DNA from: Candidatus Woesearchaeota archaeon
GTDB lineage: Archaea > Nanobdellota > Nanobdellia > Woesearchaeales > 21-14-0-10-32-9
Assembly (NCBI GenBank): GCA_046543095.1
Contig: JBKHAC010000003.1
Coordinates: 4,163 to 68,162 of the forward strand
Direction: 5' to 3'
DNA length: 64,000 nt
Part shown: positions 3,117-60,163 of the stretch, piece by piece
Layout: the number at the start of each line of letters is the position of its first letter
Position numbering within the stretch: the first letter of the stretch is position 1
Program-made: the position numbers and the translations under genes
The notes under the pieces: model-generated
What the model saw: only the letters and a program-made list of their open reading frames with translations
Told to the model about the DNA's origin: nothing
The model's database searches: none

Positions 3117-3336
3117 TTGCAAATTATGTTTATGATTTATGATTAATTCTTATTTTTTTCTCATATTTTTTTGTATTATTGTATCAGTTTTAATATTATG
3201 TGTGTTGAAATTAAACTTAACTAAAATAAATTAAGTTTTTCGCATTTTTATCAAGTTTATTCACGCATTTTTTAATGGTAGCCATTAGCAAACTTTTTAT
3301 AAACTGCTATCTTTCCTTTTATTTAGGTGATATATA

Positions 3337-3930: not shown

Positions 3931-3938
3931 TTTTTTTT
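3931..3938 (+). terminator. oligo-T tract directly after the sod stop (archaeal-type terminator signal)
   Basis: T8 run starts 1 nt after the TAA. More T runs follow. Confidence 0.45.
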
Positions 3939-3956
3939 CTTCTTATTTTTTTTCTT

Positions 3957-21458: not shown

Positions 21459-21581
21459 CGCCCAGGGTGAGATTTGAACTCACGATCCCAAAGGGACAGG
21501 ATGTTTGCGGCATTGTAGGTTCTCTAAAGCACAATGTTGTACTTAGCAATCCTGCGCAATACCAGGCTATGCGACCTGGGC
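21459..21581 (-). tRNA. tRNA-Ser(GCU) with a 41-nt intron at the canonical 37/38 position
   Basis: Acceptor GCCCAGG/CCTGGGC, discriminator G, anticodon stem CAGGA/TCCTG, loop TTGCTA|A. Long variable arm TCCC-TT-GGGA, T arm GTGAG-TTCAAAT-CTCAC. BHB: 4-bp helix TTGC/GCAA flanked by 3-nt bulges TAA and ACA. CCA is not encoded. Confidence 0.9.
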
Positions 21582-25393: not shown

Positions 25394-25486
25394 TATTTTA
25401 TTTAGAAATCTTTTTTCTTTTATAAATCATGCTTTATTTTTTTAAAGGAAGTTTTTTATATTCTTTTGTTTTCTTTTTTTATTATT

Positions 25487-29872: not shown

Positions 29873-30511
29873 TTAGTCTTTTTTTAATTTTTCTTTAAGT
29901 TCTTTAAATCGTCTAAGTTCTGTCCAGTTTTTGCGTAGGTGCTCTGCATCTGAGTATTCTGTGAACATATCGTAGTGTTTGTGTGGGTTTTGCATTCTTT
30001 GTGCGTGTTTTATTGGGCACCAGTAGCGTTCGGTTCTTCCGACGATTTCTTGCATGTAGCTAACAAGGCAGTTGTAATATGAGCAGTATGCGCAATTTAA
30101 TTTTTCGAGCCAGTTTAGGTGTGGTAGCTTTCGTCTATCAAATATGAAATATTCTTTTGGGTTTACAAGAGGTATGCCATATAATCTGAAACATACGTGG
30201 TGGTATATCTCAATTGTTATGTGCATTATGATGCCGGGTATTATCATTCCGTAAATGAAGGGCATTGATATTAGGTATTTTAATGTCATCCATATGTTTG
30301 TGTATATTAGTTTGTGCCATACGCTAATTCTTTTTAATCTAAGTTCGCCTTTCTTTTTTAGAACCTCGGTTATGTAGTCTCTTTGTTTGTATAAATTATC
30401 TATTTGTAAATCTATTTTTTTAAGAAAGTTCTCTCTGAATTTTTCAAATTCTTGTATCTTTGTAAGTGTCTTTGTTTCTTGTTTTATATCTTTTTTCATT
30501 TCTTTTTTCAT
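29873..30511 (-). CDS. hypothetical membrane protein with a Cys/His-rich C-terminal module
   Basis: Coiled-coil N-terminus and two TM helices, then CAYCSYYNC..YWCPIKHAQR. Confidence 0.5.
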   Translation of the reverse strand: MKKEMKKDIKQETKTLTKIQEFEKFRENFLKKIDLQIDNLYKQRDYITEVLKKKGELRLKRISVWHKLIYTNIWMTLKYLISMPFIYGMIIPGIIMHITIEIYHHVCFRLYGIPLVNPKEYFIFDRRKLPHLNWLEKLNCAYCSYYNCLVSYMQEIVGRTERYWCPIKHAQRMQNPHKHYDMFTEYSDAEHLRKNWTELRRFKELKEKLKKD

Positions 30512-30559
30512 ATTAGTGCCTAATTTAGTTATTGTTATAGATTTATATTTATTTGTTTT

Positions 30560-31666
30560 TTATGATGTAAGTGCATCTTTTAGAAATGTTGAATCTGTTG
30601 TTTTGTATTTTAATTTACCTGAGTCATAAACTCGTTTGATTGGGTCGGATCTTAAGTTTAAAATCAAATCTATTCTCTTTCCAGTTATAATTAATAATTC
30701 TCCTGTCTCGTAATTAATTAAGTATTTGTTTTCTTGTGGTACTTTTTGTATTTTTGCTTTTTCAAGTTTGTTAAATCCTAAAATTGTTTGCGCAATGTTG
30801 TCTATTTCTTGTCTTTTAACGGGTAAAATCATAGGTATTAGGCCTATGTCGTGTTCATTTAAATAAGAATTTAATCGTACAAGTCCTTCTCTTAGTGGTT
30901 TGTACTTCCTTGTTGGTATTGTTATTTCTTCTCGTGTTCCCATTATTAAGAAATCTATTTGTTTTTCAGGGTATAGTGATTTTATTGGTTCTATTATTTT
31001 TCTGTATATTTTTTTATTATTTTTCTCTGTGCTTCTCAAATATCCGAGTGTGCCTATTTTTGATTCGCATATGATGAGTCCATCTACCTTTCTTGTTTTA
31101 TATTCGAATAAGCCGTCGTATTCAGTTATATTTCTTTGTTTTGGGCAATTTTTATCTATTAATATTTGATTATATCTTGATATTCCTTCAAGAATATATC
31201 GTTCATTTTCTTTTATTATTATTTGATTATTGGTAATTTCATCAAGTGTGAGTGCATCATTTATTTCAATATTTTCTTTTTGTTTAGTCTCTGTATTATT
31301 ATTTACTTTTTTTTCTGTTTTTATAAAATTTGATTCGTCTATTTTGAGTTTTTTACTTATTCTTCTAAAAAATTCTTTTATTGTAATTCGCATTATGCTC
31401 TCACCCATAAGTCCGCTAAAGGTTCCATAAATTATTTTATTTGTTTTATTTGCGCCATTTCTATTGTAGTTGAGTAAGTATTTTCTTTGTCGAAATTCTT
31501 TCACTGAGGGAGATTGTATTGAAAAATAATAATCTGGGCACGTAAATGAGCCTGCTTTTTCAAAACCAAGAGATCTAACATTGTGGTGTTGTCCAATTTT
31601 TAGTGTATTTGTTAAATTGCAGTCTACTGGATAGAATTCGTCTAACACGCGATCTTCAAGGTTCAT
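30560..31666 (-). CDS. hypothetical protein, possible PD-(D/E)XK nuclease fold
   Basis: EYDGLFEY..KVDGLIICESKIG resembles a D..(D/E)xK motif. This is weak evidence. Confidence 0.45.
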   Translation of the reverse strand: MNLEDRVLDEFYPVDCNLTNTLKIGQHHNVRSLGFEKAGSFTCPDYYFSIQSPSVKEFRQRKYLLNYNRNGANKTNKIIYGTFSGLMGESIMRITIKEFFRRISKKLKIDESNFIKTEKKVNNNTETKQKENIEINDALTLDEITNNQIIIKENERYILEGISRYNQILIDKNCPKQRNITEYDGLFEYKTRKVDGLIICESKIGTLGYLRSTEKNNKKIYRKIIEPIKSLYPEKQIDFLIMGTREEITIPTRKYKPLREGLVRLNSYLNEHDIGLIPMILPVKRQEIDNIAQTILGFNKLEKAKIQKVPQENKYLINYETGELLIITGKRIDLILNLRSDPIKRVYDSGKLKYKTTDSTFLKDALTS

Positions 31667-41765: not shown

Positions 41766-41787
41766 GTGTTTTGTGTTTCTTCTAAGT

Positions 41788-42393
41788 ATGGGAATTACAA
41801 TATCTGGAATGTTAAAAATGGAAGATGTTCAAAACTTGATCCAAAGTATAAATCATAATTATTATGAGTCTATAGGTCATCAAGATATGTTTGAGCAAAA
41901 CTTGGTGCTTTGGGATGATGATTCTTTGGTTGATGTGGGGAGGAGACTTGAGTCTCAGTCTAGCACTTGTAAAGCGTCTTTACAATTGCAGAAGGATTAT
42001 GCTATTGTGGAGGCGCGGAAATTAGGAGGAAGATTGTTGCCTGCAATATCTGAGTTTGCATCTACTGTTAATGTTGAAGGTAGGCGCGATAAATATTGTG
42101 ATCTTAGGGTTGAATCTAAAACTAGGATTTATAATGTGACATTACTTGAAGATTTAATTTCGGGTCAAACTTTTAAACCTGTTATTAATAAATTTCTTAT
42201 TCAAACTCTTCAACCTTATAAAGGGGATGGTTATCACAAATTTGATTATGTTGCTGATAGGTTGATTAAATTAGATGACTTTAATGCAGGTTTCCTAGAA
42301 TATAGGAATAGGATGGTTCTTCAAGCTCAAGATAGGGTGAATCAGTATGTATCAAGGGCCGCGGGTCGTATGCTGGATGATTTAAGAGGATAG
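41788..42393 (+). CDS. hypothetical protein
   Basis: ORF behind a leaderless-type promoter. No motif recognised. Confidence 0.5.
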   Translation: MGITISGMLKMEDVQNLIQSINHNYYESIGHQDMFEQNLVLWDDDSLVDVGRRLESQSSTCKASLQLQKDYAIVEARKLGGRLLPAISEFASTVNVEGRRDKYCDLRVESKTRIYNVTLLEDLISGQTFKPVINKFLIQTLQPYKGDGYHKFDYVADRLIKLDDFNAGFLEYRNRMVLQAQDRVNQYVSRAAGRMLDDLRG

Positions 42394-42906: not shown

Positions 42907-43113
42907 TTAGTTTGTGGTATTTCTTTTTTTATTTTGTATTTTTGGTTTGTGGTTTTTTTGAGTTTTGTCGTTGTATTTTTTCTTGTTTTTTTATCTGAAT
43001 CTAAGATTATTGGTGTTTATTTTATGTTTTTCCGTGTTTCTTCTTATTTTTCTTATTTTTTTCCGTGTTTTGTTTAGTAATTATTTTTAACTTGTTTTAT
43101 TTATTGTTTGTTT

Positions 43114-43623
43114 ATGATTGTTGATTTCAGAAGAGATATTCATTTGAGGGGTGCTGTCTTTGAGGATGTCGCTCGTATCTTGCTTAGACGTCGTAATGAG
43201 AATAATTTTATTTTTCGTGTGTGTAATTTTGATTCTTTATTTGAAATAGTTAAGAAATACAGGTTTAATTGTAGTGGTATTAAAGATGTTTTTTCTTTTT
43301 TCTCTGTGAATCGTTGTCTTTGTGATTTGGTTGAATTTGTTGTTGATAATGTTGAGTCTAGGAATGTTTTAAAAATTAATTTTTATGAGGTTAAATCTAG
43401 GAGGCAGGATGCTAAAAGGAATTATTTTGAGTCTTGTTTGTCTAATCATAATTTCATGGTTGATATGAAAAATAGGGGGTTTGGTGTTTTTGTTATTAGT
43501 TTGGTTTTGTTTGATGATTGGCGGTTTAGTTTTAACGTTTATGATTATGGTTCTGTTTTGTTTAGGGTTTATGATTCTCAGCGTAATAAAACTGTGTTGT
43601 TTCAAAGGCCTTTGAAGGTTTAA
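43114..43623 (+). CDS. hypothetical protein with a PD-(D/E)XK (Hjc/Mrr-like) motif pattern
   Basis: RGAVFEDVARILL (helix Glu), CDLVEFVV (Asp), INFYEVKSRR (ExK). Confidence 0.45.
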   Translation: MIVDFRRDIHLRGAVFEDVARILLRRRNENNFIFRVCNFDSLFEIVKKYRFNCSGIKDVFSFFSVNRCLCDLVEFVVDNVESRNVLKINFYEVKSRRQDAKRNYFESCLSNHNFMVDMKNRGFGVFVISLVLFDDWRFSFNVYDYGSVLFRVYDSQRNKTVLFQRPLKV

Positions 43624-43709
43624 TTCTTTTGTTTTTTTGTGTTTTAGAGTTTTTTTGAGAGTTGTGTTGTTTTATTTTGTTTTGGTGTTTATTTTAATAT
43701 TTGGCATTA

Positions 43710-43874
43710 GGTATTATAGAAATCCTATTAAAATTTTAATAATGATGCTATCTTGCGCAGTCATAGATCAAACAGCTGTGGTGTGTGAGACTCGGTTCAA
43801 ATGTCTAAATAATATGGAAAAGGAGCATAGTATAATTAAGATTTTATTGGTTCGAAAAGGATTTCTATGAGGCC
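43710..43874 (+). mobile_element. MITE-like family 2, copy 2A (165 bp)
   Basis: TIR ggtattatagaaatcctatt versus the reverse complement of the right end, ggcctcatagaaatcctttt (16/20). Flanked by a perfect 8-bp direct repeat tggcatta (43702-09 and 43875-82). Confidence 0.75.
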
Positions 43875-43900
43875 TGGCATTAGTAATATTTTTATATTGG

Positions 43901-44386
43901 TTGGGTTTATTTTTGTTTATGGGTTTTGTTGTTGGTGATGTTTATCGTGTCTCTGCGCCGTTGGGGCCTTTAGTTAAGTATTTGTTGAGTGATAAGTCTG
44001 GGGTGTTGGTTAGGTCTGGGTTTGTTGGTTTATTGGGAGAAGTTGAGGGTTCTAATGCTGTTGCTGCGCAGAGTTATTTATCAGGGGGTGTTTTGAATAT
44101 TTATGATTATAAAAAGTGTTGTGGTGATGAGTATGGTGTTGTTTTTGATGCTATTGATTCGTTTATTGAGGGGAGGGATTTTTCTTTTAAGGGTTTAGCT
44201 GTTGATCGTGATGTTTTTTTTAAAAGTAAAGATGTTCATTTTCTTGCGGGTTATTTGTCTAGGTTCGGTGAATTTTTTAGAAAGCCTGTTTCGCTTGAGG
44301 ATTCTTTGTCTCATTTGAAATGTAGGGTGTTTGAATTCAAATCTTTTAAAGTTGCTAAGTGTGTTTTTGAGAGTTATGTTGTTTGA
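43901..44386 (+). CDS. hypothetical protein
   Basis: + strand-type codon usage. No motif recognised. Start is uncertain (TTG at 43901 or ATG at 43919). Confidence 0.45.
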   Translation: MGLFLFMGFVVGDVYRVSAPLGPLVKYLLSDKSGVLVRSGFVGLLGEVEGSNAVAAQSYLSGGVLNIYDYKKCCGDEYGVVFDAIDSFIEGRDFSFKGLAVDRDVFFKSKDVHFLAGYLSRFGEFFRKPVSLEDSLSHLKCRVFEFKSFKVAKCVFESYVV

Positions 44387-46556: not shown

Positions 46557-46612
46557 TATTTTTTCTTTTTTTTTCTTGTTAATTAACTTTTTATATTTGT
46601 TTTCATTCCTTG

Positions 46613-47452
46613 ATGGTTATGTCTTCGGAATTTGATGTTTTAGCATTCAAGCACTTGAAAGATCAAAAATATGATTTCTTGAATGTTTTTAGCAAGTTTT
46701 CTAATAGTAAGTTTCACAGACAAACGGATGGTTTGCTTGAGGTTTTTCCTCATTTAAAGCGGCCTTTGGATTTTTATTTTAAAGGTTCTTTTTTGCATTA
46801 TAATTGGGTGTATCATCTTGTTAATTTATCTAGGCGCGTTTTAGCTATTGATGCGCGTGGCGATTTGGATAATTGTTCAATTGAGGATATTTTAGATTTG
46901 AAAGCTAAGCATGAAAACTTGAGTTGTGTTAAAGATAAGTATGTTGGTGTTATGAATGATTTTCATAAAAGGTTATTTGATGTTTTAGATGAGTATCAAA
47001 CTCATGTTAAATTAAACAAGAAAGATTATCTTGAAAGTTTAAAAAAAGGTGATTTATCGTATATTGATTCTGATCCTTTTGGTGGTGCGTTGTATACTCA
47101 GCTTAGGGGTATTTTAATTAATGACGATTTAATTTCTATTGTGTTAAATAAGGTTACATCGCGTGCTGAGCTTGAGTATTTGGATTCTGCGCATTGGTCT
47201 ATTTTTGAGGCTTGTTTGGATTTTTTGCCTGTGGGTGTGCCGTGTGGTGAGTATTTTACTGGGGTGATTGATGAGTCTAGGCGTTTGTTTGAAGGTGGGG
47301 TGTATGATTTTGATTTCATTAATAAATTTGTTTCAACTAAAACTTTCTCGTCTGTTGATTTAATGAATCCTGATTTTGGGGGTCTTAATTTTTTTAAAGA
47401 GCAGCATCATGATGCGTGGTCAGAATTTAAGGCAAAAAAATATTTTAAATAA
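46613..47452 (+). CDS. hypothetical protein between ahcY and the kinase
   Basis: 280-aa ORF with + strand-type codons. No motif recognised. Confidence 0.5.
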   Translation: MVMSSEFDVLAFKHLKDQKYDFLNVFSKFSNSKFHRQTDGLLEVFPHLKRPLDFYFKGSFLHYNWVYHLVNLSRRVLAIDARGDLDNCSIEDILDLKAKHENLSCVKDKYVGVMNDFHKRLFDVLDEYQTHVKLNKKDYLESLKKGDLSYIDSDPFGGALYTQLRGILINDDLISIVLNKVTSRAELEYLDSAHWSIFEACLDFLPVGVPCGEYFTGVIDESRRLFEGGVYDFDFINKFVSTKTFSSVDLMNPDFGGLNFFKEQHHDAWSEFKAKKYFK

Positions 47453-49171: not shown

Positions 49172-49672
49172 TTATGGATTTACTTTCGCGTTTATTGATC
49201 CAGTGTGTGGTCTTGTTAGTTCAGTGTCCATATTCGTGTATTGGAAGGTCAGGTCTGATCTGAATCTGTTTCCTGCTGAAAGGCCTGATCCTGAGCTACT
49301 GCAATTGTAGGCTAGTGTAAATTGTGCGCCATTAGGAATTTCGTATCCGTTTCCTGATGCTGTTACGTCATCTCCTGTTATGTATGCATTATATATTGAA
49401 TCACAATCTTCGGTGCCTGCCATATCGTTGGTTGATATGTTTATTTTTGTTCCTACATTATTTCTAAAAACTATTTCTACAGCTGGTGTACTTGCAGATA
49501 CTACTGAGTCTATGCTTTGTATTGGTGCTGCAAATGTTGTTCTCTCGGGTAGCATGTTTCCTGGGCTAAGTACGCCGAAGTATGCTAGTGCTGCGATTGC
49601 TGCTAGTACTACTAATATTGCCCAGCCGTATGTCATTAAGAATTCCATGGCTGCTTGTCCTTTTCTTTTCAT
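49172..49672 (-). CDS. archaeal type IV pilin (class III signal peptide), candidate major pilin
   Basis: MKRKG|QAAMEFLMTYGWAILVVLAAIAALAYF. AGGTGA SD 8 nt before the ATG at 49672. T/S/N/G-rich globular part. Confidence 0.8.
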   Translation of the reverse strand: MKRKGQAAMEFLMTYGWAILVVLAAIAALAYFGVLSPGNMLPERTTFAAPIQSIDSVVSASTPAVEIVFRNNVGTKINISTNDMAGTEDCDSIYNAYITGDDVTASGNGYEIPNGAQFTLAYNCSSSGSGLSAGNRFRSDLTFQYTNMDTELTRPHTGSINAKVNP

Positions 49673-50002
49673 GTTTATTTTCACCTCTATTGGGTTTTTT
49701 TATTTTTTTTATCTCTTTGGATAAGTATTTTTTTTATCTCTTTTTGGTCGTTTTTTTGACCTTTTTTGACCAAAGATAGACAATTAATACTTGTATTAGT
49801 ATATAAAAGTTTCTATTTTTGTGGGTTTTTGTATATTCGAATACGTTTTAGTTTCGGATTTTTTTTATTATTTTGCTCATTATTTTGTTCTATTATGCCT
49901 ATTTGCTTTATTTTTATCATCTTGTTTTTTGTATTTGTTTTTTGTTTTTTGTTGTATGTCTTTTTCTCTATCTCGTTTTCAGGTGGGGGTTTTTCATAAA
50001 AA

Positions 50003-50010
50003 TTTATATA
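50003..50010 (+). promoter_or_regulatory. TATA box TTTATATA for the pilus operon
   Basis: Ends 25 nt before the ATG at 50036. No SD. Confidence 0.5.
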
Positions 50011-50035
50011 CTTGAGCTTATCAGTTGTTTGTATT

Positions 50036-50455
50036 ATGTTTTTAAAAAAAAGGGGTCAGGTGAGTTTTGAGTATTTGGCAATTTTTGGTATTGCTTCTCT
50101 TATGATTATTCCTTTAATGATTATCTTTGCGCATCAATCATCTTCAATTGAGGCGGATGTTGCGTATGCTCAAGCGGAAAGTGCGTTATCGCGCATTGTG
50201 GCGTCGGCAGAAGAAGTTTATTTTCAGGGGCCTCCTGCGCGTAAAACTTTGAGTGTTCATTTCCCGAAGGGTGTTCGTGAGGTTTTAATTGAGGAATCAT
50301 CGATTGTGTTTGTCTTAGAAACGGTTGATGGTGAATTTAATATTTATAAAGATACATCTGCGCGTTTGTCAGGTTCGCTTGAGTCTTTTGAGGGGCCTCA
50401 TATTGTTGTTTTTGAGGCGAGTGAGGGTTTAGTTACGTTGGCGGAGAAGTCTTAA
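50036..50455 (+). CDS. prepilin-like protein 1 (class III signal peptide)
   Basis: MFLKKRG|QVSFEYLAIFGIASLMIIPLMIIF. Confidence 0.7.
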   Translation: MFLKKRGQVSFEYLAIFGIASLMIIPLMIIFAHQSSSIEADVAYAQAESALSRIVASAEEVYFQGPPARKTLSVHFPKGVREVLIEESSIVFVLETVDGEFNIYKDTSARLSGSLESFEGPHIVVFEASEGLVTLAEKS

Positions 50456-50462
50456 AAAATGA

Positions 50463-50915
50463 GTGTTGGTTAGGGTGATATTTGTTTTGATTAAAAAAAA
50501 GGGGCAGGTTGGTTTTGAATTTATGATGGTGGCTTTAATTGCTATCTCGACGCTCATTGTTTTTGTTATAATTTTAAGTGTTTTAACTACTACTAAGCAA
50601 GATGATGCGCGTATGTTTAAGGCGCAAAGTTTAGTTGATGGTTTTAGTGAAGAGCTTTTTTTTGCGGCGGAAGCTGAAGAGGGTTATTCGAGGGTAATTG
50701 AGCTTCCATCTTCTGTTGAGGGTAGGCCTTATGTGCTTAATATTGAGGGTTTTGAGAATCGTTCATCTTTCTTTGAATTATCTGTTGAGTCTTATATTCT
50801 TTCGAATTATTTACCGAGTAATGTTCAGAGTTTTTATTTTAATTCTTCTATTCATTCAAAAAATGTGGTTATATCAAAGCGTGATGGTTTGATTAATTTA
50901 GAGGTGGTTTCTTGA
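50463..50915 (+). CDS. prepilin-like protein 2
   Basis: ..LIKKKG|QVGFEFMMVALIAISTLIVFVII. Non-ATG start, exact codon uncertain. Confidence 0.65.
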   Translation: MLVRVIFVLIKKKGQVGFEFMMVALIAISTLIVFVIILSVLTTTKQDDARMFKAQSLVDGFSEELFFAAEAEEGYSRVIELPSSVEGRPYVLNIEGFENRSSFFELSVESYILSNYLPSNVQSFYFNSSIHSKNVVISKRDGLINLEVVS

Positions 50916-51418
50916 CTTTTTTATTTTTCTCAAAGAGGGCGCAGTCTTGGATTTTTGAGTATATTGTTAGTTTCTTAATATTTTTAGGTCTTTTATTTAT
51001 TGCAATTAATGTTTTATCTTCTACATCGTCTAAGTCTTATTTTGAGGATGTTGCGCGTGATGCGGATCATATTTCGTCGTTATTTTTATCTGAAGGCATG
51101 CCTGATAATTGGTCTAATTCGTCTGTTTTATCTGTTGGTTTAATGTCTGATGGTCGTGTTGATTTAAATAAAATGGGTGAATATGATTTGCTTACTTATA
51201 ACAATGTTAAATCTTTACTTGGTGTATCGAGTGAGTTCTTATTTTATTTTGAAAATTCTTCAGGTATGATGCTTGTTGATGGTCTTTGTTATCGTGGTTT
51301 CGTTGAGGGGTGTGGGGATTTTAAGAGTTTTATTACTTATAATGATTTAGCGACGTCTAGGCGTATTGTTGTTTTAGATTCGAGTATTGTTGAGTTAGTG
51401 GTGGTGGTTTTTAGATGA
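50912..51418 (+). CDS. prepilin-like protein 3
   Basis: ..FSKRA|QSWIFEYIVSFLIFLGLLFIAI. 4-nt overlap with the previous gene. Confidence 0.6.
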   Translation: MTFLFFSKRAQSWIFEYIVSFLIFLGLLFIAINVLSSTSSKSYFEDVARDADHISSLFLSEGMPDNWSNSSVLSVGLMSDGRVDLNKMGEYDLLTYNNVKSLLGVSSEFLFYFENSSGMMLVDGLCYRGFVEGCGDFKSFITYNDLATSRRIVVLDSSIVELVVVVFR

Positions 51419-54120
51419 ATCGTAAAGGAATGTATTATATTTTTGATGCTCTTCTTGCTGGTGTTTTGTTAATGGGTGTTTTAATCTTAATAGTATCTAT
51501 GAGTGATGATTCTACTTATTCTTCTCCTAATTTTTTAAGTCAGGATTTATTAAATGCTTTATCTACGATTAAGGTTCATGAGCTTCCTGCAGATGATCTT
51601 GCTTCAATTTCTAATCAGGATGATTTATATTTAAATATTAGTGTCTTTGAGCAAATTGGTAGGTTTTGGGCTTTAAATTATTCTAGTGATGCGTCTTTGC
51701 TTGCGGATATTGCTTTATCTTCGCTTAATTTATCAAAGCAGGTTACTTTAAGGGTTGGTGGGGAGGATATTTATACTGTTGGTTCATTTGTGCTTGATGA
51801 TGTTTTTATTTCGCGTAGGATGATTGCGGGTATTGATAAGGGTAAGCCTGTAACTGGCACGAGTGCATCTGCTTATTTGCGTCGTATTCGTGATAAAAAA
51901 ACTAGTTCTTATGCGTACTTTGGTGGTTTTACAGGGCAGGGTAATATTTCAAAAAAATTAATTTTGCCTTCTGATTTTACGCTGGCGCGTCTTATTTCAG
52001 CGGAGCTTAAAGCGGAGATTCCTAGTGATTTTCGCGTTTTTGTAAATGGTGTGCTTTGTGGTGGTCTTAGAAGTGGCGCTGAGGGGGTGGTTTCGAGTCA
52101 TAATTTGTCGATGTGTTCTTTTAAAAATAATACTAATATTGTGCTTATTTCATTTGCAGGAAGTATTGATTCTGCGTATGTGAGTGGGGGTTATATTAAG
52201 GCGACGTATACGACTGATTCTTTGCGTGAGGGTGAGTCTTTAGGTGTTGCGCGTTATGATTTTCCTGGTATTAATGGGTTGATTAATGTTTATGATTCTA
52301 TATCTGCGCAAGGCACGATTACTGGTTGGCGTTTAAACATTACTTTTGAGAATATTTATGATACTTTTATGACTATTGCAAATGAGACTGTCTTTTATGC
52401 GCCGGGTCAAAATGATTCGAGAAATATTATTATTACAAATAATGATCCTGATTTGCCTCCCTCTCAAATTCCGATCAGGGTTGGTGTTAGTAATTTGTCT
52501 AATATTACTACTGTTTTAAATGGTACTCCTGCTGATACTTTTTTAATTACTGATGTGTCTGGTAGTATGAGTACTTGTGGTCTTCTTGAGGAGGAGGATG
52601 TTCAGTATTGTTCATATGAGTATCGTTCATGTTTTTTATGGTTTTGTAATTGGTATCCTGTGGAGTGTCCTTATTCTGGTTCTTGCGCAGGTAATCCTTG
52701 TGGGGGTACTACGAATACGCGTAATCATAATTCTTTTAATAAAACTGAGCAGGTTTGCACTGCATCTTTTATGGATGTTGCAAAAGATGCGGGGAAAGTG
52801 TTTGTTGATGAGGTTCTAGGTGAGTCTTCGCAGCATAGAATTGGTCTTGTTAGTTTCTCGACTAATTCCAATTTGGATCACGTGTTATCTAATATTGGTG
52901 GTTCTCTAAAATCTACTATTGATGGTTACTCTGCGGATGGTGGTACGTGTACTTGTTGTGGTTTGAATCGTGCGAGAAATGAAATAATGTCGTCTGATAA
53001 AGAGCGTTTTATAATTTTGCTTAGTGATGGTGTTCCTACTTATTATTGTGATAATTTAAATGATTACACAGGTTCTGGTACGGGTAGTACTATGGAGCAA
53101 GATGATGTTGATGCTGCACTTGCATCTGCGCAGGAGGCGTGTGATAATAATATCACGGTTTATTCTATTGGGTTTGGTGATTTATTAACTGTTGAGGGTC
53201 ATGATGTTTTACGTCAGCTTGCATGTAATGAGTCTTTATATTATAGCACTACTGATATGGATGAGCTCGCAGATATTTTTAGAAATATTTCGAGTCAGAT
53301 TTTGCTTCAGGCGAATTTTTCATCGCAAACAATTGAAGTTGTTGGCGATTTCGTTGAGTCTAATTTGAGTGTTGATTCTTATCTTGAAATTTTCTTTGAT
53401 CCTTTCGAGTCTTCTGTTGATGTTGGTAAAATTGAGCTTTCATTTGAATCTGATCCTTTTAGTTGTGATGCTAGTATTTATATTCCATCTAATCTTGAAA
53501 TTACTGATGCGAAGATTGCATCTTTCTCTGGTAATGAGTGGACTCGTAAATTAAATATTAAAAATGATGATTTTGATGAATTGGTGTATGATATTGATTT
53601 GTTTGGTTCTGATTATCCTGTTTTAGGTGATCCTTTTCAAATTCAAGTTCCGTCTGTTTTACTCATGCCTGGGCAAATTAATAATTTATCTATTGTTGTT
53701 GGTGATTCTCCCAGTAATATTTCTAGTTGTATGCCTTTTAACACTTTAATTTATACGGGGTTTATTAATTCGACGACGCCGAGGACTGATTCTTTGGAGT
53801 TCGCGGATGGTTGTCTTTGGAGTGTTGAAACTGCTGAGGGTACGTTTCTTGAACTTGATATTCCTGAGGATTATTCTGTGAGTGGTTCTAATAGGTGTTA
53901 TTATAATTCATCAAGTGATTTCATTAATAACAAGCCATTTAATGATAAAGATGCGTATGATGTTGCGATGTTTAATTTGCTCAGGCAGCTTGATCCTGAT
54001 GAGGCGGGTCGTATCATTGTTGATTTAGATGAATCTGATCTTGAAATTCAGTTAACTATTGTTGGTAGTATTCCTTATATGTGGGGGCCGAGTATTGCTG
54101 AAGTGGAGGTGAGACCTTGA
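51415..54120 (+). CDS. 901-aa pilin-like protein with a von Willebrand factor A (VWA) domain
   Basis: MNRKG|MYYIFDALLAGVLLMGVLILIV. MIDAS residues DVSGSM .. ADGGTCT .. LLSDGVPT. Cys-rich insert after DxSxS. Confidence 0.75.
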   Translation: MNRKGMYYIFDALLAGVLLMGVLILIVSMSDDSTYSSPNFLSQDLLNALSTIKVHELPADDLASISNQDDLYLNISVFEQIGRFWALNYSSDASLLADIALSSLNLSKQVTLRVGGEDIYTVGSFVLDDVFISRRMIAGIDKGKPVTGTSASAYLRRIRDKKTSSYAYFGGFTGQGNISKKLILPSDFTLARLISAELKAEIPSDFRVFVNGVLCGGLRSGAEGVVSSHNLSMCSFKNNTNIVLISFAGSIDSAYVSGGYIKATYTTDSLREGESLGVARYDFPGINGLINVYDSISAQGTITGWRLNITFENIYDTFMTIANETVFYAPGQNDSRNIIITNNDPDLPPSQIPIRVGVSNLSNITTVLNGTPADTFLITDVSGSMSTCGLLEEEDVQYCSYEYRSCFLWFCNWYPVECPYSGSCAGNPCGGTTNTRNHNSFNKTEQVCTASFMDVAKDAGKVFVDEVLGESSQHRIGLVSFSTNSNLDHVLSNIGGSLKSTIDGYSADGGTCTCCGLNRARNEIMSSDKERFIILLSDGVPTYYCDNLNDYTGSGTGSTMEQDDVDAALASAQEACDNNITVYSIGFGDLLTVEGHDVLRQLACNESLYYSTTDMDELADIFRNISSQILLQANFSSQTIEVVGDFVESNLSVDSYLEIFFDPFESSVDVGKIELSFESDPFSCDASIYIPSNLEITDAKIASFSGNEWTRKLNIKNDDFDELVYDIDLFGSDYPVLGDPFQIQVPSVLLMPGQINNLSIVVGDSPSNISSCMPFNTLIYTGFINSTTPRTDSLEFADGCLWSVETAEGTFLELDIPEDYSVSGSNRCYYNSSSDFINNKPFNDKDAYDVAMFNLLRQLDPDEAGRIIVDLDESDLEIQLTIVGSIPYMWGPSIAEVEVRP

Positions 54121-55064
54121 ATAAGAGGGGTTTTATTTATGTTATTTCGGCGGGGCTTTTAGTTTCTGTTTTGCTTATTGTTTTTTTTTCTATGCAAGAT
54201 TTTACTTTTGATGAGTCTGTTTCATCTAAGCTTCGGCGTGTTGGTTTTGCTAATGATTTTGTTTCGGGGTTTAATCAAGATCTTGAGCGTGCTTTAAATA
54301 TTGCATCTTTCAGGTCCATGGTTGCGCTAGAGGAGCATATTGCATCTACTGGTTCTTTTTTAAATGATACGGAGGCGTATTTTGTTGAAGTGTTAGAGTC
54401 TGGTTTAATTAATGGTTCTGCTTATCAAATCATGGATAATTCTTCGCTTTCAGTTTATCTTGAGCGTGTAAATATTATTGCGAGTAATTTTGGTATTGAA
54501 GTTGATGTTCAAATTAATGATATTGTGCTTGATCAATTTGATGCTTGGAATTTGTTTGTGTCAATTAATGCTTCTGTTTTAATTTTGGATACGACTGGGC
54601 TTGCTAATTGGTCTTATATTAGGGTGTATGAGTCTGTTGTGCCTATATCGAATCTTCGTGATCCGCTTTATACTGTATCTACGCGTAATCGTGTATCTAA
54701 TACTGTTCGTGAGTTTAACAAATCTTTTTCAAGTTCTAATATTTCTAATTTCTTTGAATTCCTTGAAGGGTCTTATTATGTTGAATCTCCAAATGCTGCG
54801 CCAAGTTTCATTCAGCGTTTTAGTAATAATGTGTCTCCGAGTCCTTTTGGGATTGAGAGTTTGGTGGATGTTCTTGAAATATCTGATCAAGATCTTGATA
54901 CATTTCCTAGTAGGGTTAAAATTGATTTTATTTACTTTAATGATTTATCTGTTCCAGAAACAGTTTGCGTGATTGGTGGTGTTCCTTCAGGTTATCATTT
55001 GATTCTGCCTAACTCTAGTGTGGATAAATTTGAATTAAATAGTTTTGTTATTGGTTGTTCTTAA
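54117..55064 (+). CDS. prepilin-like protein 5
   Basis: MNKRG|FIYVISAGLLVSVLLIVFF. 4-nt overlap with the VWA gene. Confidence 0.6.
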   Translation: MNKRGFIYVISAGLLVSVLLIVFFSMQDFTFDESVSSKLRRVGFANDFVSGFNQDLERALNIASFRSMVALEEHIASTGSFLNDTEAYFVEVLESGLINGSAYQIMDNSSLSVYLERVNIIASNFGIEVDVQINDIVLDQFDAWNLFVSINASVLILDTTGLANWSYIRVYESVVPISNLRDPLYTVSTRNRVSNTVREFNKSFSSSNISNFFEFLEGSYYVESPNAAPSFIQRFSNNVSPSPFGIESLVDVLEISDQDLDTFPSRVKIDFIYFNDLSVPETVCVIGGVPSGYHLILPNSSVDKFELNSFVIGCS

Positions 55065-55275
55065 TTTTTTTTTGTTTTTGTTTAGTTTTTTTGTTCTTTT
55101 ATTTTTTCTTATTTCTTATTTTTGTTTATTTTTTCTTATTTTTTATTTAAATAGCTCACTTTATTTAGGGTGGTGTTTTATTTCGAAAAGTATATAAGTG
55201 ATAACTTTATTTATTATTTATAATTGAAGGGTTTTTTTATTTAAAAAAGAGGGTTTTTAGTATAAGAGGGGTTTG

Positions 55276-56424
55276 ATGAAGAAGATTAAAACCGGTGCTG
55301 ATAAATTAATTGATATTATTCAGGAAACTAATCGTATTAGTTTGGATGATGCCTCTAAAGCGCTTGGTGTTAGTGGTGAGCTTGTTTTGGAGTGGGCTGA
55401 GTTTCTTGAAAAAGAAAAACTTATCAGTATTGATTATTCTTTCTCTAAGGTTTTTTTCAAAACGAGGGTTATGTCGTCTAGTGATATCAAAAGTTCGGCT
55501 AAAGAAGTTGTTCATGAAAAGGATGCTTTTTTAAGAAAAGTTGAGTATGCTATTTCTTCTCTTGATAGGGAGTCTGTTAATTTTGATGAGATTAAAAAGA
55601 AGTTTAATAGTGTTCATGGTGATGTTAAGGAAGAGATTAAAACTGTTGAGCGTGAGCTCTCCGAGCTTGAAAAATATAATCAGTTAAAATCAAATATTGA
55701 TAAGGATATTGAGGTTCAAAAAGATAAGTATGAGAAATTGCTTGATTTGCTCGCAGAAGATATTAAAGATTATGAAAAAGAATTTGTTGATTTGTATGCG
55801 AGGATTGTTGCTGAAAAAGAAAAAATTAATGAGCATAGATCTCGGTTAGTTTCGCTTTCGAATTCTCAAAAAGAAATTTCTGAGTCGATTAAGTCTGCTA
55901 ATTCTGTGTTAATAAAACTTAAAGATGATTTGAGGGTGGAAGAAGGGGCTATGTCTTCTAGACTTAAGAGTTTTGATAAATTAAAAGTTGAATTTGATAA
56001 TTTGAGTGATAAGATTATTCGTGAGAAAAAGCGCAAAATTTCTGATTTGTCTTCGTCTCTTGATAAGGAGTCTGCTATTTTGCGTGAGCGTCAAAATAAA
56101 TTGTTTGATGATGCGCGTGCGAAAGCATCGAAGCTTGAGAGTTATGAGTCTTTGGGCAGGACTATTAAAAATAGTTTTGATGGTTTTTTCAAGAAAACTA
56201 TTATTATATCGAAGAAGATGGATGAAATTGACTCGGATAAGGTTGACTTAAAAAAGAATTTGCTCGTGTTAAAACAAAAAGCTGAGGCTCTTGTTGTTAT
56301 GTCGTCTAATGAATCGTTAAAAGAGCAGGCTGATGCGCTTGATTTGGAAATTAAAAAACAAGAGGAGGCTAAGCATAGGCTTATTGGTAAGATGCGGTCT
56401 TTACTCGATGATTTGAGGTTGTGA
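55276..56424 (+). CDS. wHTH-like N-terminal domain plus long coiled-coil protein (pilus-locus accessory)
   Basis: The N-terminus ISLDDASKALGVSGELVLEWAEFLEKEKLISI looks like a winged helix. The rest is heptad-rich and K/E/L/D-rich. Confidence 0.5.
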   Translation: MKKIKTGADKLIDIIQETNRISLDDASKALGVSGELVLEWAEFLEKEKLISIDYSFSKVFFKTRVMSSSDIKSSAKEVVHEKDAFLRKVEYAISSLDRESVNFDEIKKKFNSVHGDVKEEIKTVERELSELEKYNQLKSNIDKDIEVQKDKYEKLLDLLAEDIKDYEKEFVDLYARIVAEKEKINEHRSRLVSLSNSQKEISESIKSANSVLIKLKDDLRVEEGAMSSRLKSFDKLKVEFDNLSDKIIREKKRKISDLSSSLDKESAILRERQNKLFDDARAKASKLESYESLGRTIKNSFDGFFKKTIIISKKMDEIDSDKVDLKKNLLVLKQKAEALVVMSSNESLKEQADALDLEIKKQEEAKHRLIGKMRSLLDDLRL

Positions 56425-56429
56425 TTTAT

Positions 56430-58259
56430 ATGGTTAAAAAAAGGGTTTCTTCTAAAAAAAATAAAGTTTCTACTAAAAGTTCAAGCAAAAATAAACTTGG
56501 GTCTGATGAGTGGACGGGTGAGGTTAATCATAAAGTTGATTCTCATAAAAATTTAAAAAGTGGCGTTGTTGATTCTGCACTTGATGATGGTTCTGAAAGT
56601 AAGGGTGCATCTGTATCGAGTAGTGGAGTTGGGACTAATAAATCTGATGGTGTTAAGTCTGCTATTGTAGATTCTTCTAATTCAGGTGAAAATAATGTAT
56701 CTTCTAATGAAGGTGTCTCTCAAGGTGATTTAACTAAAGTGGATGCGGGGGGTATGTCAAAACCTGCTGATTCTGATTCTATGAAAGTTATTGATTATTA
56801 TGATTATTTGGCTGATGGTATTACTATTAATATTGTGATTAAAAAGGTGCGTGGTGAATTTGTGCCTATTTATGATCTTGAAATATCTGCGATAAGTCCT
56901 ACGACTGAAGTGATTTTAGAGGGTGTTCGTCAAGAGCTTATTCGTCGTGTGAATCTTGGTATTGCTGAGATTAATGATTATAAGAATGCGAATTTGGTTG
57001 AAGAAAAATTTGATCATATGATTCGTATTTTGATTCGTAAGTATTTTCCTGAAAGTGATGATGCTACTGAGAATTTTTTGTCAACGTATTTGAAAATGAA
57101 AAGTTTGGGTCTTGGCGCGCTTGAATTATTGATGGCTGATGAGCTTTTGGAGGAGATTGTAATTAATCAGGGCACGGAGCCGATTTGGGTTTATCATAAG
57201 CGTCATGGTTGGCTTAAGACTTCGGTTGTTTTAAAAGATGAGGAGCAAGTTAAGCATTATGCTAGTATTATTGGTCGTAAGGTTGGTCGTCAAATCACGG
57301 TTTTAAATCCTTTACTTGATGCTCATTTAAATGAGGGTGACAGGGTTAATGCGACGCTCTATCCTGTAAGTACTGCGGGTAATACTATTACTATTCGTAA
57401 ATTTAGTAAAGATCCGTGGACTATTACTAAGTTCTTGAAAACTGAGACTATTTCATATAAGGCTGCGGCGATTATTTGGACTGCTATTCAATATGAGATG
57501 TCTGCGATTATTGCGGGGGGTACTGCGTCTGGTAAGACTTCTGCGCTTAATGTTTTTGCGGGGTTTTTTCCGCCTAATCAGAGGATTATTACAATTGAGG
57601 ATACTCGTGAAATTCAGCTTCCGAAGTTTTTGCATTGGGTTCCTTTGAATACGATTTTGGCGAATCCTGAGGGTAAGGGCGAGATTACTATGCAGGATTT
57701 GCTTGTGAATTCTCTTCGTATGCGTCCTGATAGGATTCTTGTTGGGGAGGTTCGTCGTAGTAAGGAGACTGATACTTTGTTTGAGGCGATTCACACGGGG
57801 CACTCTGCGTATGCGACTTTTCACGCGAATAATGCGAAGGAGACTATTGAGCGTTTGACTAATTCTCCTTTGAATGTTCCTAAAATTATGTTGCCTGCTA
57901 TCTCGCTTATTATTGTTCAGTTTCGTAATCGTAGGTCTGGTAAGCGTCGTACTTTTCAAATCTCTGAAATTACGTCTTCAGGTGATGCGAATGTTATTTT
58001 GCAGTATGATGCTAAAAAGGATGTTTTAGTTGAGGCGAATAAATCTTCTGCTTTCTTTGAAAACATTAAATTATTTACGGGGCTCGATGAGCGTGAGATT
58101 AATGCTGATTTGGATGAGAAAGTTAAGATTTTGAAGTACTTGGTCAATCATAACATTAACACTATTGATGGTGTTGGTCGTATTATGGCTGAGTATTATA
58201 CTGATAGGGATAATTTGATGAAGTTTGTAAATAAAAATGAAGTGTTTAAGGATGATTAG
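56430..58259 (+). CDS. type IV filament assembly ATPase (FlaI/PilB/VirB11 T2SSE family)
   Basis: Walker A AGGTASGKTS, Asp box ITIEDTREI, Walker B RILVGEVR, His box GHSAYATFHAN. Roughly 120-aa S/G/D/K-rich N-terminus. Confidence 0.85.
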   Translation: MVKKRVSSKKNKVSTKSSSKNKLGSDEWTGEVNHKVDSHKNLKSGVVDSALDDGSESKGASVSSSGVGTNKSDGVKSAIVDSSNSGENNVSSNEGVSQGDLTKVDAGGMSKPADSDSMKVIDYYDYLADGITINIVIKKVRGEFVPIYDLEISAISPTTEVILEGVRQELIRRVNLGIAEINDYKNANLVEEKFDHMIRILIRKYFPESDDATENFLSTYLKMKSLGLGALELLMADELLEEIVINQGTEPIWVYHKRHGWLKTSVVLKDEEQVKHYASIIGRKVGRQITVLNPLLDAHLNEGDRVNATLYPVSTAGNTITIRKFSKDPWTITKFLKTETISYKAAAIIWTAIQYEMSAIIAGGTASGKTSALNVFAGFFPPNQRIITIEDTREIQLPKFLHWVPLNTILANPEGKGEITMQDLLVNSLRMRPDRILVGEVRRSKETDTLFEAIHTGHSAYATFHANNAKETIERLTNSPLNVPKIMLPAISLIIVQFRNRRSGKRRTFQISEITSSGDANVILQYDAKKDVLVEANKSSAFFENIKLFTGLDEREINADLDEKVKILKYLVNHNINTIDGVGRIMAEYYTDRDNLMKFVNKNEVFKDD

Positions 58260-58265
58260 TTTTTT

Positions 58266-59090
58266 TTGGGTGGGGGTTTGATTTTTGTGGATGTGAATAA
58301 ATTATATGCTTGGCTTGCAAGGAAGAGTCCTGGTTTGAAGACTAAGTTGCAGCAGGCTGGTATTTATGATTCTCCTGAGGGGTATGTTAAAAAAACTGTG
58401 TTTAATTCTGTTTTGTTGGCTTTGGGTATTTGTTTTATTTTATTTATGTTTTTAATGTTGCCTATTGTTTTTTTATTTGTGCCAGTCATTGTTCCTTTGC
58501 TTTATTTTTATTTTATGGGTTATGTTGATGTTAAAATTGAGCAGATTAAAAAAGATATTGATAGGGAAATTATTTATGCGGGTCGTTTTCTTATAATTGA
58601 AATTGAGTCTGGTGTTCCGCTTTATGATGCTATTTATAATATTGAAAAGAATTATAGGATTATTGGTGCGTATTTTGGTGATATTGTAAATAAGGTTTAT
58701 TTGGGTACGTCACTTGAGGATGCTATTAATGAGACTATGCTTATTACGCCGTCTAATAATTTGCGTAAGATTTTGTGGCAAATGTTAAATTCTATTAAGA
58801 CTGGGGGTGATGTTGCGACTAGTTTGAATTCGGTTATTGATCAAATTATGAAAGAGCAAAAAATTAGTGTTCAAGATTATGGTAAAAAATTAAATCCTCT
58901 TGCGATGTTTTATATGATGGTTGCGATCATTGTGCCTTCTTTGGGTGTTACTATGCTTGTTGTTTTGGCGACGTTTTTAGGTCTTCAGATTGGTTTGCCT
59001 ATTTTGCTTGTTATTGCTTGTTTGCTGGGGTTTGTTCAGTTCATGTTTTTGAGTATTATAAAATCTGCGAGGCCGAGTATTAGTTCATAA
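58266..59090 (+). CDS. T2SSF-domain platform protein 1 (TadB/PilC-like)
   Basis: TM helices flank a cytoplasmic helical domain (AGRFLIIEIESGVPLYDAI..LWQMLNSIKTGGDV). Start codon uncertain. Confidence 0.7.
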   Translation: MGGGLIFVDVNKLYAWLARKSPGLKTKLQQAGIYDSPEGYVKKTVFNSVLLALGICFILFMFLMLPIVFLFVPVIVPLLYFYFMGYVDVKIEQIKKDIDREIIYAGRFLIIEIESGVPLYDAIYNIEKNYRIIGAYFGDIVNKVYLGTSLEDAINETMLITPSNNLRKILWQMLNSIKTGGDVATSLNSVIDQIMKEQKISVQDYGKKLNPLAMFYMMVAIIVPSLGVTMLVVLATFLGLQIGLPILLVIACLLGFVQFMFLSIIKSARPSISS

Positions 59091-59092
59091 AA

Positions 59093-60163
59093 ATGCAAAA
59101 GAAAAAAAATAATCTGGATGGTGAAAAAAAATCTAAGAAGATTAAAAGTAAATTTGATAAGACTAAAAGAGCGCAGAGGCGGTCTATTCAAAAGATTTTA
59201 TCTGAGTTCTTAGTTAAGGCGGGTAGTGATGAGTCTCCTAAAGATTTGCATAAAAAAGTTGTTATGATTTCGCTTGTGCTTTGCGGGGTGTTGTCTTTAG
59301 TTATTGTTGTTATGGGTGTTTTTGCTAGTACTAGTTTTATTCAGATTTTTTCTATTTTGTTTCTTATTTGGACTTTGTTTCTTGTTGCTTTTTATTTGGT
59401 TTCTTTACTTTTTGTATTTTTTTATTTTGATTATCGTATTTATCAAAGAACTAAGGAAATAGAGGAGGTACTTCCTGAGTTCTTGCAACTCACGTCTGCA
59501 AATATTAGTGCGGGTATGACTATTGATAGGGCGCTGTGGTTTGCTGTTCGTCCGAAATTTGGTGTTCTTGCAAAAGAGATTGAAGAAGTTGCAAAATCTA
59601 ACATTGCGGGTGATGATCTTGAAAAGGCTTTGCTTGACTTTGCAAACAAATATAGGTCTGATACTCTTCGTGAGGCGATTAATTTATTAATTGAAGGTAT
59701 GCGTGCGGGTGGTGAGATTGGTTATTTGCTCAATCAAATATCTGCGAATATGCAAGATATTAAGCTTATGAAGCGCGAGATTAGTTCGAGTGTTACGACG
59801 TATGTTATTTTTATTACGGCGGCCGCGATTATTGGTGCGCCTTTGCTTCTTGCGCTTAGTGGTCAGCTTCTTGTTGTAATTTCTTCTTTAACTGCGGGTC
59901 TTGAGATGTCTGCGGGTGATGGTGCGAGTAGTATGTTCTCTATGGATTTATCTGGTGAGAGTATTTCTCTTAGTGATTTTAGGGTCTTTGCGTTTGTCAT
60001 GCTTTTTTTCTCATCTACCTTCTCTGCGTTAATCATTGGTGTTATTCGTAAGGGTTCGCCTAAAGAGGGGTTGAAATTTATTCCGGCATACATTGCTATC
60101 TCGTATGTGTTATACTTCCTAGCTGATTGGGGTTTTAGCTCATTGCTTGGTGGTATTTTCTAG
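59093..60163 (+). CDS. T2SSF-domain platform protein 2 (TadC/PilC-like)
   Basis: LPEFLQLTSANISAGMTIDRAL..LIEGMRAGGEIG, plus N- and C-terminal TM helices. Confidence 0.7.
   Translation: MQKKKNNLDGEKKSKKIKSKFDKTKRAQRRSIQKILSEFLVKAGSDESPKDLHKKVVMISLVLCGVLSLVIVVMGVFASTSFIQIFSILFLIWTLFLVAFYLVSLLFVFFYFDYRIYQRTKEIEEVLPEFLQLTSANISAGMTIDRALWFAVRPKFGVLAKEIEEVAKSNIAGDDLEKALLDFANKYRSDTLREAINLLIEGMRAGGEIGYLLNQISANMQDIKLMKREISSSVTTYVIFITAAAIIGAPLLLALSGQLLVVISSLTAGLEMSAGDGASSMFSMDLSGESISLSDFRVFAFVMLFFSSTFSALIIGVIRKGSPKEGLKFIPAYIAISYVLYFLADWGFSSLLGGIF

Follow-up and report, generated by a model that had tools for sequence, protein, structure and literature searches.

Does the locus at positions 49172-60163 of this DNA encode a filament by which one cell takes hold of another? 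The 64-kb stretch analysed here (positions 1-64000, hereafter the window) had been read, from its letters, as DNA of a DPANN archaeon that carries an archaeal type IV pilus locus, a candidate cell-cell attachment machine. The prevailing view of DPANN archaea is that they spend their lives attached to other cells; to our knowledge few of the molecules that make this contact have been identified, and no Woesearchaeote has been cultured. The source is indeed such an archaeon, Candidatus (Ca.) Woesearchaeota, and the ATPase encoded in the locus is 100% identical to a protein from an NCBI metagenome-assembled genome (MAG) of this group.

Gene and domain content confirm that the locus is an archaeal type IV filament gene cluster, complete-looking, with pilins, an ATPase and a platform, and it probably encodes an adhesive archaeal type IV pilus, the subunits as well as the machine that assembles them. 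A T2SSE-type ATPase with intact nucleotide-binding motifs adjoins a T2SSF platform, six proteins begin with prepilin-like N-termini, and one of these, the 901-amino acid (aa) protein p4, joins a pilin-type N-terminus to a predicted VWA domain with a complete DxSxS...T...D metal ion-dependent adhesion site (MIDAS).

Gene order and the assembly machinery

The ten open reading frames (ORFs) first described for this region, a divergent pilin gene and an operon of pilin, ATPase and platform genes, are all present in the ORF list. The pilin gene pilA lies on the minus strand, and the nine-gene operon on the plus strand runs p1-p2-p3-p4-p5-cc-ATPase-F1-F2: five pilin-like genes, a winged helix-turn-helix (wHTH)/coiled-coil gene (cc), a T2SSE ATPase gene and two T2SSF genes. 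Below, a slash marks the predicted cleavage site.

49172-49672, minus strand: pilA, candidate major pilin, 166 aa (ORF; ATG at 49672, Shine-Dalgarno-like GAGGTGA 9 nt upstream)
49673-50035, no strand: divergent intergenic region with TATA-like boxes (direct reading of the sequence)
50036-50455, plus strand: p1, minor pilin-like, MFLKKRG/QVSFEYL (ORF; ATG at 50036)
50487-50915, plus strand: p2, minor pilin-like, (M)IKKKG/QVGFEFMM (ORF; TTG start at 50487 after AGGGTGAT)
50912-51418, plus strand: p3, minor pilin-like, SKRA/QSWIFEYIV, acidic residue at +6 (ORF; overlaps the p2 stop)
51415-54120, plus strand: p4, modular pilin-like protein of 901 aa with VWA/MIDAS, predicted adhesin, MNRKG/MYYIFDALLA (ORF, Pfam, structure model, Foldseek)
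54117-55064, plus strand: p5, minor pilin-like, 315 aa, MNKRG/FIYVISAGLL, no acidic residue at +5 or +6 (ORF; overlaps the p4 stop)
55276-56424, plus strand: cc, cytoplasmic protein of 382 aa, HTH-like domain (about 65 aa) plus a coiled coil of about 310 aa (weak profile matches)
56430-58259, plus strand: type IV pilus assembly ATPase, 609 aa, T2SSE/VirB11 superfamily (Pfam, NCBIfam, PDB alignments)
58287-59090, plus strand: F1, platform protein with a single T2SSF, equivalent to the N-terminal half of FlaJ/UpsF (Pfam, NCBIfam)
59093-60163, plus strand: F2, platform protein with a single T2SSF, equivalent to the C-terminal half of FlaJ/UpsF (Pfam, NCBIfam)

Four-base overlaps join p2 to p3, p3 to p4 and p4 to p5, and stops and starts also abut or overlap at cc/ATPase, where the cc stop lies just 5' of the ATPase start, and at F1/F2; this arrangement indicates an operon. 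The spacing from p5 to cc is a 208-base gap. The starts of cc (55276), the ATPase (56430) and F1 (58287) were set from the called genes of an identical Logan contig, and the deposited ATPase gene encodes 609 aa, three codons shorter at its start than the 612-aa ORF. A TATA-like box (TTTATATA; AAATTTATATAC, ~49998-50010) lies about 26 nt 5' of the p1 ATG, which suggests that the operon mRNA is leaderless, and a second TATA-like box, TATATAAAAG, stands at ~49800 between pilA and p1; both may act as promoter elements.

Domain searches located the machinery where the original prediction had placed it. The ATPase matched Pfam T2SSE (3.4e-33), and its alignment with AfGspE, FlaI and CpaF showed the catalytic motifs to be intact: the Walker A, Asp, Walker B and His boxes all align, with GGTASGKT as Walker A and with IEDTRE and VGEVR among the boxes visible. 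Its first 122 residues (27 S, 17 K, 15 V, 13 G, 12 D) make up the low-complexity N-terminus of roughly 120 aa noted before; this part is not conserved, and homologues align from about residue 120 onward. F1 and F2 contain one T2SSF each (Pfam, 6.2e-15 and 2.4e-12), the platform thus being encoded by two single-domain genes as in Tad and Epd systems. With NCBIfam models, F1 aligned to positions 31-243 of 484 of UpsF and 10-248 of 555 of FlaJ, and F2 to positions 266-554 of 555 of FlaJ. Since the two proteins match the N- and C-terminal halves of FlaJ/UpsF, the platform represents a split form of the fused archaeal protein. Searches of PDB sequences with F1 and F2 gave no matches.

Automatic annotation of homologues as FlaI and FlaJ raises a different explanation, namely that the locus encodes an archaellum, the swimming organelle of archaea. 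The Joint Genome Institute (JGI) calls many homologues of the ATPase 'flagellar protein FlaI', FlaI is its best NCBIfam model, followed by TadA and BasE, and papers on Woesearchaeota count flaI, flaJ and flaK as motility genes (PMC11606122). However, the FlaI match scored 266 bits against a cutoff of 550. In a neighbour-joining tree of 294 core columns, with the references AfGspE, FlaI and CpaF copied from PDB alignments, FlaI and AfGspE formed a pair with 100% bootstrap and all DPANN ATPases fell outside it; the node joining the DPANN ATPases had 36% bootstrap. An ATPase branching inside archaellum FlaI, the outcome that had been named as telling against a pilus, is therefore not what was found, and on these alignments the tree excludes identity as an archaellum ATPase. 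The distance to CpaF was 0.66 from the ATPase, compared with 0.71-0.72 from FlaI and AfGspE, yet the bit scores of the PDB matches favour AfGspE (225) and FlaI (195) over CpaF (167).

The rest of the locus also speaks against an archaellum. The platform is split here and FlaJ is fused, the pilins have an N-terminus of pilin type with Q at +1 and E at +5, and none of the six pilin-like proteins matched an archaellin in Pfam. Among about 35 window proteins scanned, a part of the window's ORFs, no archaellum family was found (no FlaF, FlaG or FlaH, as had been observed before, and no FlaC, FlaD, FlaE or FlaX). The FlaI equivalog, archaellins and FlaF/FlaG/FlaH are thus all missing from what was scanned. 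Sequence comparison therefore supports the view that the locus is not an archaellum, an explanation we regard as highly improbable, and it corrects a habit of naming such genes flaI and flaJ and tallying them as motility genes.

The remaining operon protein, cc, had been labelled a wHTH/coiled-coil protein. The coiled coil stood up, being backed by weak SMC/Rad50/HmpF-type matches in NCBIfam, and the wHTH part holds at the level of the family. Residues 1-70 find 530 representative proteins, several relatives of this domain match HTH_DeoR, MarR or TrmB models, and a profile of the domain run against PDB gave nothing better than LrpA at E=0.015; an HTH or winged-helix fold is likely for the family on this evidence. 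Synteny was compared across 19 related loci from species-representative genomes, and in one of these (L010) the ATPase gene (2457-4235) includes the HTH domain of cc, about 60 aa long, as an N-terminal fusion (41% identity over 61 aa), with no separate cc gene upstream. This fusion argues that the HTH domain works with the ATPase.

Prepilin-like N-termini and the VWA protein p4

A six-frame scan of the window for a class III-like motif (K or R, then G or A, then a hydrophobic helix) gave ten hits, the six canonical ones in genes of this locus and the remaining four weak. Under a stricter motif with an acidic residue at +5 or +6, five sites were found in the 64 kb, 5 of 5 in this locus, and no further small ORF with Q at +1 and E at +5 appeared in the window. 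Six proteins of the locus combine the motif with the hydrophobicity sought, and their N-termini are conserved in orthologues. On this motif basis, with the Pfam Class_IIIsignal model sub-threshold and confined to p1, the six prepilin-like N-termini originally proposed are borne out.

The conserved residues differ from one protein to the next. The pilA orthologues keep KG/QAAMEF, p1 keeps /Q.S.EY and p2 /Q...EF (8 orthologues each), p3 keeps /Q.W..[DE][YF], and p4 orthologues share /h[YF][YF]..DA. The N-terminus of p5, a protein with no Pfam match, is conserved and hydrophobic, and an acidic residue at +5 or +6 is present in 0 of 9 orthologues.

No peptidase A24 was found among the multi-transmembrane (TM) ORFs of the window, in line with the earlier statement that PibD/EppA is absent from it. 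The four ORFs with at least four predicted TM segments, platform excluded, have other identities: an undecaprenyl-phosphate translocase-like protein, a Na/H exchanger, a DUF4395 protein and an MscS channel. EppA in particular turned up neither in the window nor in the flanks of the related loci. A peptidase encoded in trans is plausible, given that another study reports flaK for the majority of its Woesearchaeota MAGs (PMC11606122).

The pilA product begins MKRKG/QAAMEFLMTYGWAILVV, a sequence nearly invariant across 120 homologues. More than 5000 homologues exist, some of them named 'UPF0333 family' by JGI, and Pfam assigned no family to the 120. An AlphaFold2 (AF2) model built with these 120 homologues (predicted local distance difference test, pLDDT, 88.7) has a helix at residues 4-32 followed by a beta-sandwich; as modelled, the protein is built like archaeal pilins and archaellins, and archaellins appear among its weak Foldseek matches.

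The largest of the pilin-like proteins is p4, whose VWA domain matched Pfam at E=6.6e-9. Its MIDAS residues D380, S382, S384, T511 and D538 are at least 90% conserved among 72 homologues. The AF2 model made with these homologues (pLDDT 86.3) opens with a helix (3-28) and passes through a helical segment and a beta-rich region (109-360) to the VWA domain (373-634), which carries a beta-hairpin and a Cys-rich insertion and is followed by beta domains (649-900). Foldseek matched it best to Mfa5, a tip protein of type V pili, in the vWF domain (1.3e-12), and to the sortase-pilus tip adhesin SpaC, with the vWFA domain of the LapA adhesin and the VWA domains of anthrax-toxin receptors among further matches. 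From the model and from these adhesins, we infer that p4 is a giant modular pilin and a predicted pilus-tip adhesin.

The records found for the p4 family are of Woesearchaeota/Nanoarchaeota type only and are named 'VWA domain-containing' or 'hypothetical'; one distant relative, from Aenigmarchaeota, also bears DUF2341, the domain of clade 1 adhesins. In two distant DPANN loci (Nanoarchaeia L017, Micrarchaeota L020), the gene in the position of p4 encodes only 131-146 aa. The sequences suggest that p4 may be such a small pilin with domains grafted onto it, and this stays a suggestion because hhalign of the p4 family against these small pilins matched the N-terminal helix alone, with low probability.

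A machine that builds only a short pseudopilus, as in type II secretion, a Com pilus or a bindosome, could serve secretion, DNA uptake or substrate capture with no long pilus. One major and five minor pilin-like genes resemble GspG with GspH-K or ComGC with ComGD-G. Pfam finds a single ATPase and no retraction ATPase in the locus, and archaeal type IV filament machines have been proposed to be 'functionalised' by binding proteins with class III signals (preprint 10.64898/2026.04.22.720090). Against this, nothing in the locus was recognised as a substrate-binding protein, a nuclease or a DNA-binding pilin, the closest folds to the VWA/MIDAS part of p4 are those of pilus-tip adhesins, and the abundance of the pilA family is that expected of a shaft subunit. 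We therefore consider a pseudopilus-type machine unlikely.

Conservation, proposed filament and possible target

The ATPase has thousands of homologues in Woesearchaeota and Nanoarchaeia, 62-85% identical and often named 'FlaI' automatically; many carry Pfam PilB3_C, and the closest 120 matches listed are all of Woesearchaeota type. Among the related loci, four (L002-L005) have the complete order of pilA and p1-p2-p3-p4-p5-cc-ATPase-F1-F2, and in two more (L006, L007) pilA has moved, so that the ten-gene cassette recurs in six further genomes of Woesearchaeota type. One locus (L018) is rearranged, with p1-p5 divergent from genes for a short HTH protein, the ATPase, F1 and F2. The distant loci L017 and L020 have three upstream pilin-like genes with the same three N-terminal types, and in Ca. 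Altiarchaeota (L015, 3948-5557) three tandem pilA-like genes (MRRG/QGALEYLITYGWAIL) directly follow ATPase-F1-F2.

Three loci (L004, L005 and L009) contain a second, paralogous cassette, p4'-p5'-ATPase'-F1'-F2', followed by a stand-alone 65-aa gene for the cc-type HTH. These second copies (L004 14473-21031, L005 14476-21463, L009 4689-8352) lie a few kb from the first, lack p1-p3 and pilA, and encode an ATPase about 50% identical to the first. The MAGs bearing the cassettes L002, L003, L018 and L019 have 'uncultured Methanosarcinales archaeon' as their deposited name, and among the homologues one is attributed to Alphaproteobacteria and one to Allocoleopsis; these labels are probably taxonomic mislabels or binning errors.

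From these components we infer processing, filament assembly, a tip location for p4 and p5, adhesion and what the target is. The short basic leader of the six prepilins would be cut off after G or A by a class III signal peptidase whose gene lies elsewhere, and a hexameric ATPase docked on the F1/F2 platform would drive the pilins out of the membrane and into the polymer. PilA, an alpha-helix with a beta-sandwich, would form the shaft, and the five pilin-like proteins of the operon would form an initiating complex that primes assembly and finishes at the tip. This complex would be capped by p5 and would present p4, whose VWA/MIDAS would bind a ligand on another surface. This acidic residue neutralises the N-terminus of whichever subunit lies above, and its absence is the hallmark of capping subunits in bacteria (GspK/PilX-type); p5 is placed on top because its acidic +5/+6 residue is always missing. 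The HTH/coiled-coil protein may be a cytoplasmic accessory of the ATPase, serving as a scaffold or as a regulator.

Several points weigh against an adhesive pilus. The Pfam Class_IIIsignal model picks up p1 only, below its cutoff (E=0.016). No prepilin peptidase was found in the window or in the flanks of the 19 related loci. Foldseek found no PDB neighbour of the pilA model below 1e-3 (best E 1.2e-3). Some intracellular regulators, ArnB for example, have VWA domains too; here the class III N-terminus of p4 argues for export. The roles given to p1-p5 are modelled on bacterial minor pilins, and the adhesive pilus as a whole is predicted from genes, domains, motifs, synteny and modelled folds.

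Parallels from other organisms bear on a tip adhesin and on its target. The pilin PilB of Streptococcus sanguinis bears a VWA module that mediates adhesion from a tip position (PMC8179133), archaeal clade 1 loci encode large adhesins together with at least five minor pilins (PMC4858521), and cryo-transmission electron microscopy (cryo-TEM) shows pili-like appendages linking ultrasmall cells to hosts (PMC7906910). The VWA/MIDAS module of p4, which the first reading of the locus had missed, strengthens the case for host attachment. By analogy, a role in host attachment is plausible, as is a component of the host envelope as the ligand of p4; the lifestyle of the lineage and the links seen by cryo-TEM make the host envelope an attractive candidate.

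The same adhesive pilus might instead serve attachment to surfaces in general, in biofilms or to cells of the same species, with no host-specific role. Epd, Aap and haloarchaeal PilA pili mediate surface adhesion (PMC4858521; 10.64898/2026.04.22.720090), VWA domains bind many ligands (PMC8179133), and the ligand is not identifiable from sequence. The circumstantial points on the other side are that the lineage is thought to depend on hosts and that the cassette is highly conserved across many Woesearchaeota, where the ATPase keeps 65-85% identity. General adhesion of this kind is possible, if doubtful. For an adhesive pilus that serves host contact, the cassette supplies specific candidates in its putative shaft pilin and in its putative tip adhesin, a VWA protein with a mutable MIDAS. 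A machine of this type is expected for the lineage and should surprise the specialist only modestly; its value lies mainly in these testable host-contact candidates.

Neighbouring features and comparison with known systems

Other features of the window are recorded here. GC skew of the plus strand is positive in every 2-kb bin, up to +0.43, and AT skew is mostly negative. At third codon positions, plus-strand genes have a GC3 skew of +0.66 and an AT3 skew of -0.49, and minus-strand genes, read on their own coding strand, give the mirror image (-0.55 and +0.52). This mirroring shows that the bias follows the DNA strand and not the coding sense; it looks like a very strong replication-associated mutational asymmetry. 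A 123-nt Rfam tRNA match (42.6 bits; 21459-21581, minus strand), not reported by ARAGORN, is probably an intron-containing archaeal tRNA. ORFs at 46610-47452, 43108-44386 and 41773-42393 (plus strand) and 29873-31666 (minus strand) had no Pfam match.

A gene at 25466-27442 (plus strand), 22 kb from the pilus locus, encodes a protein of 658 aa that has a hydrophobic segment at its N-terminus and a transglutaminase-like core; surface peptidases belonging to the transglutaminase family have been linked to clade 1 pilus loci (Makarova et al., PMC4858521). It overlaps the start of 27435-29306 (plus strand), which encodes a 623-aa protein with PIN, PilT-like ATPase and KH domains. The weak T2SSE match of the latter made it a candidate for a second pilus ATPase, which was ruled out on account of its different architecture and its position 27 kb away.

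Four clades of archaeal type IV pilus ATPases have been distinguished (Makarova et al., PMC4858521): Epd belongs to clade 1, the euryarchaeal clade 2 includes AfGspE, the archaellum makes up clade 3, and clade 4 completes the scheme. Two platform genes are described for System 1, which is present in DPANN, and also for some DPANN 4A loci (preprint 10.64898/2026.04.22.720090) and, in the literature, for clade 2 loci. As the split layout occurs outside clade 1, it is not diagnostic of Epd. The original label 'Epd/Tad-like' stands for the layout of the platform and falters elsewhere: pilA is a globular protein of 166 aa, EppA is absent from the locus, and the ATPase scores higher with AfGspE and FlaI than with CpaF. 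The tree, whose references are AfGspE, FlaI and CpaF, is compatible with placing the ATPase in clade 1, in clade 4 or in a DPANN clade of its own.

Compared with Epd/System 1, exemplified by the Epd locus of Methanococcus maripaludis, the cassette has likewise two platform genes and one ATPase, at least five minor pilin-like genes with a large predicted adhesin, and pilins whose +1 residue is Gln and whose +5 residue is acidic (UPF0333/DUF361 type). It differs in that the Epd major pilin is a headless protein of about 70 aa (EpdE/arCOG06620 type), whereas PilA here is longer and has a predicted beta-sandwich. In addition, the locus lacks FleN/MinD as well as EppA, a dedicated 9-TM peptidase that is often encoded in the Epd locus. 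Its adhesin is of VWA type, in contrast to the DUF2341 adhesins of clade 1, and it contains the HTH/coiled-coil gene.

Like the locus, the bacterial Tad/Flp system (TadA/CpaF, TadB, TadC, TadE/F/G) has a platform divided in two (TadB and TadC), one ATPase, CpaF, from the same subfamily (167 bits), and a set of pseudopilins with a VWA-bearing member (TadG, per PMC4858521). Unlike that system, the locus has no Flp-type pilin, TadZ, secretin or TadV, and its ATPase scores above CpaF with both AfGspE and FlaI.

Euryarchaeal clade 2 comprises AfGspE of Archaeoglobus and the PilB3/PilC3 proteins and PilA pilins of Haloferax. AfGspE is the best match of the ATPase among solved structures (225 bits), many homologues of the ATPase carry PilB3_C, a globular PilA-like major pilin is encoded beside or apart from the machinery, and some clade 2 loci have two platform genes. 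However, the DPANN ATPases branch outside the pair of AfGspE and FlaI, and the pilin families differ, with no Pfam or arCOG link between them.

The VWA pilin PilB of S. sanguinis and the tip complexes of PilY1 and minor pilins in type IVa pili resemble p4 in combining a pilin N-terminus with a VWA domain with intact MIDAS, in being encoded with several small minor pilins, and in acting as a predicted tip adhesin (PMC8179133). In contrast to these, p4 has an archaeal class III signal, is much larger at 901 aa, contains extra beta domains and a Cys-rich insertion in its VWA domain, has no detectable sequence relationship beyond the VWA fold, and is an adhesin by prediction only. Tentatively, the minor-pilin operon with its VWA pilin might correspond in archaea to the tip complex that minor pilins and PilY1 (or TadE/F/G) form in bacteria, used by Woesearchaeota as a host-recognition device; together with the HTH/coiled-coil protein as a new cytoplasmic component that docks on the ATPase, as the L010 fusion hints, it could then form a DPANN-specific subtype outside the clade scheme. 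What the comparison yields is a lineage-specific, DPANN-type variant of a well-known machine, one that combines a split platform with a giant VWA pilin and bears no Epd label.

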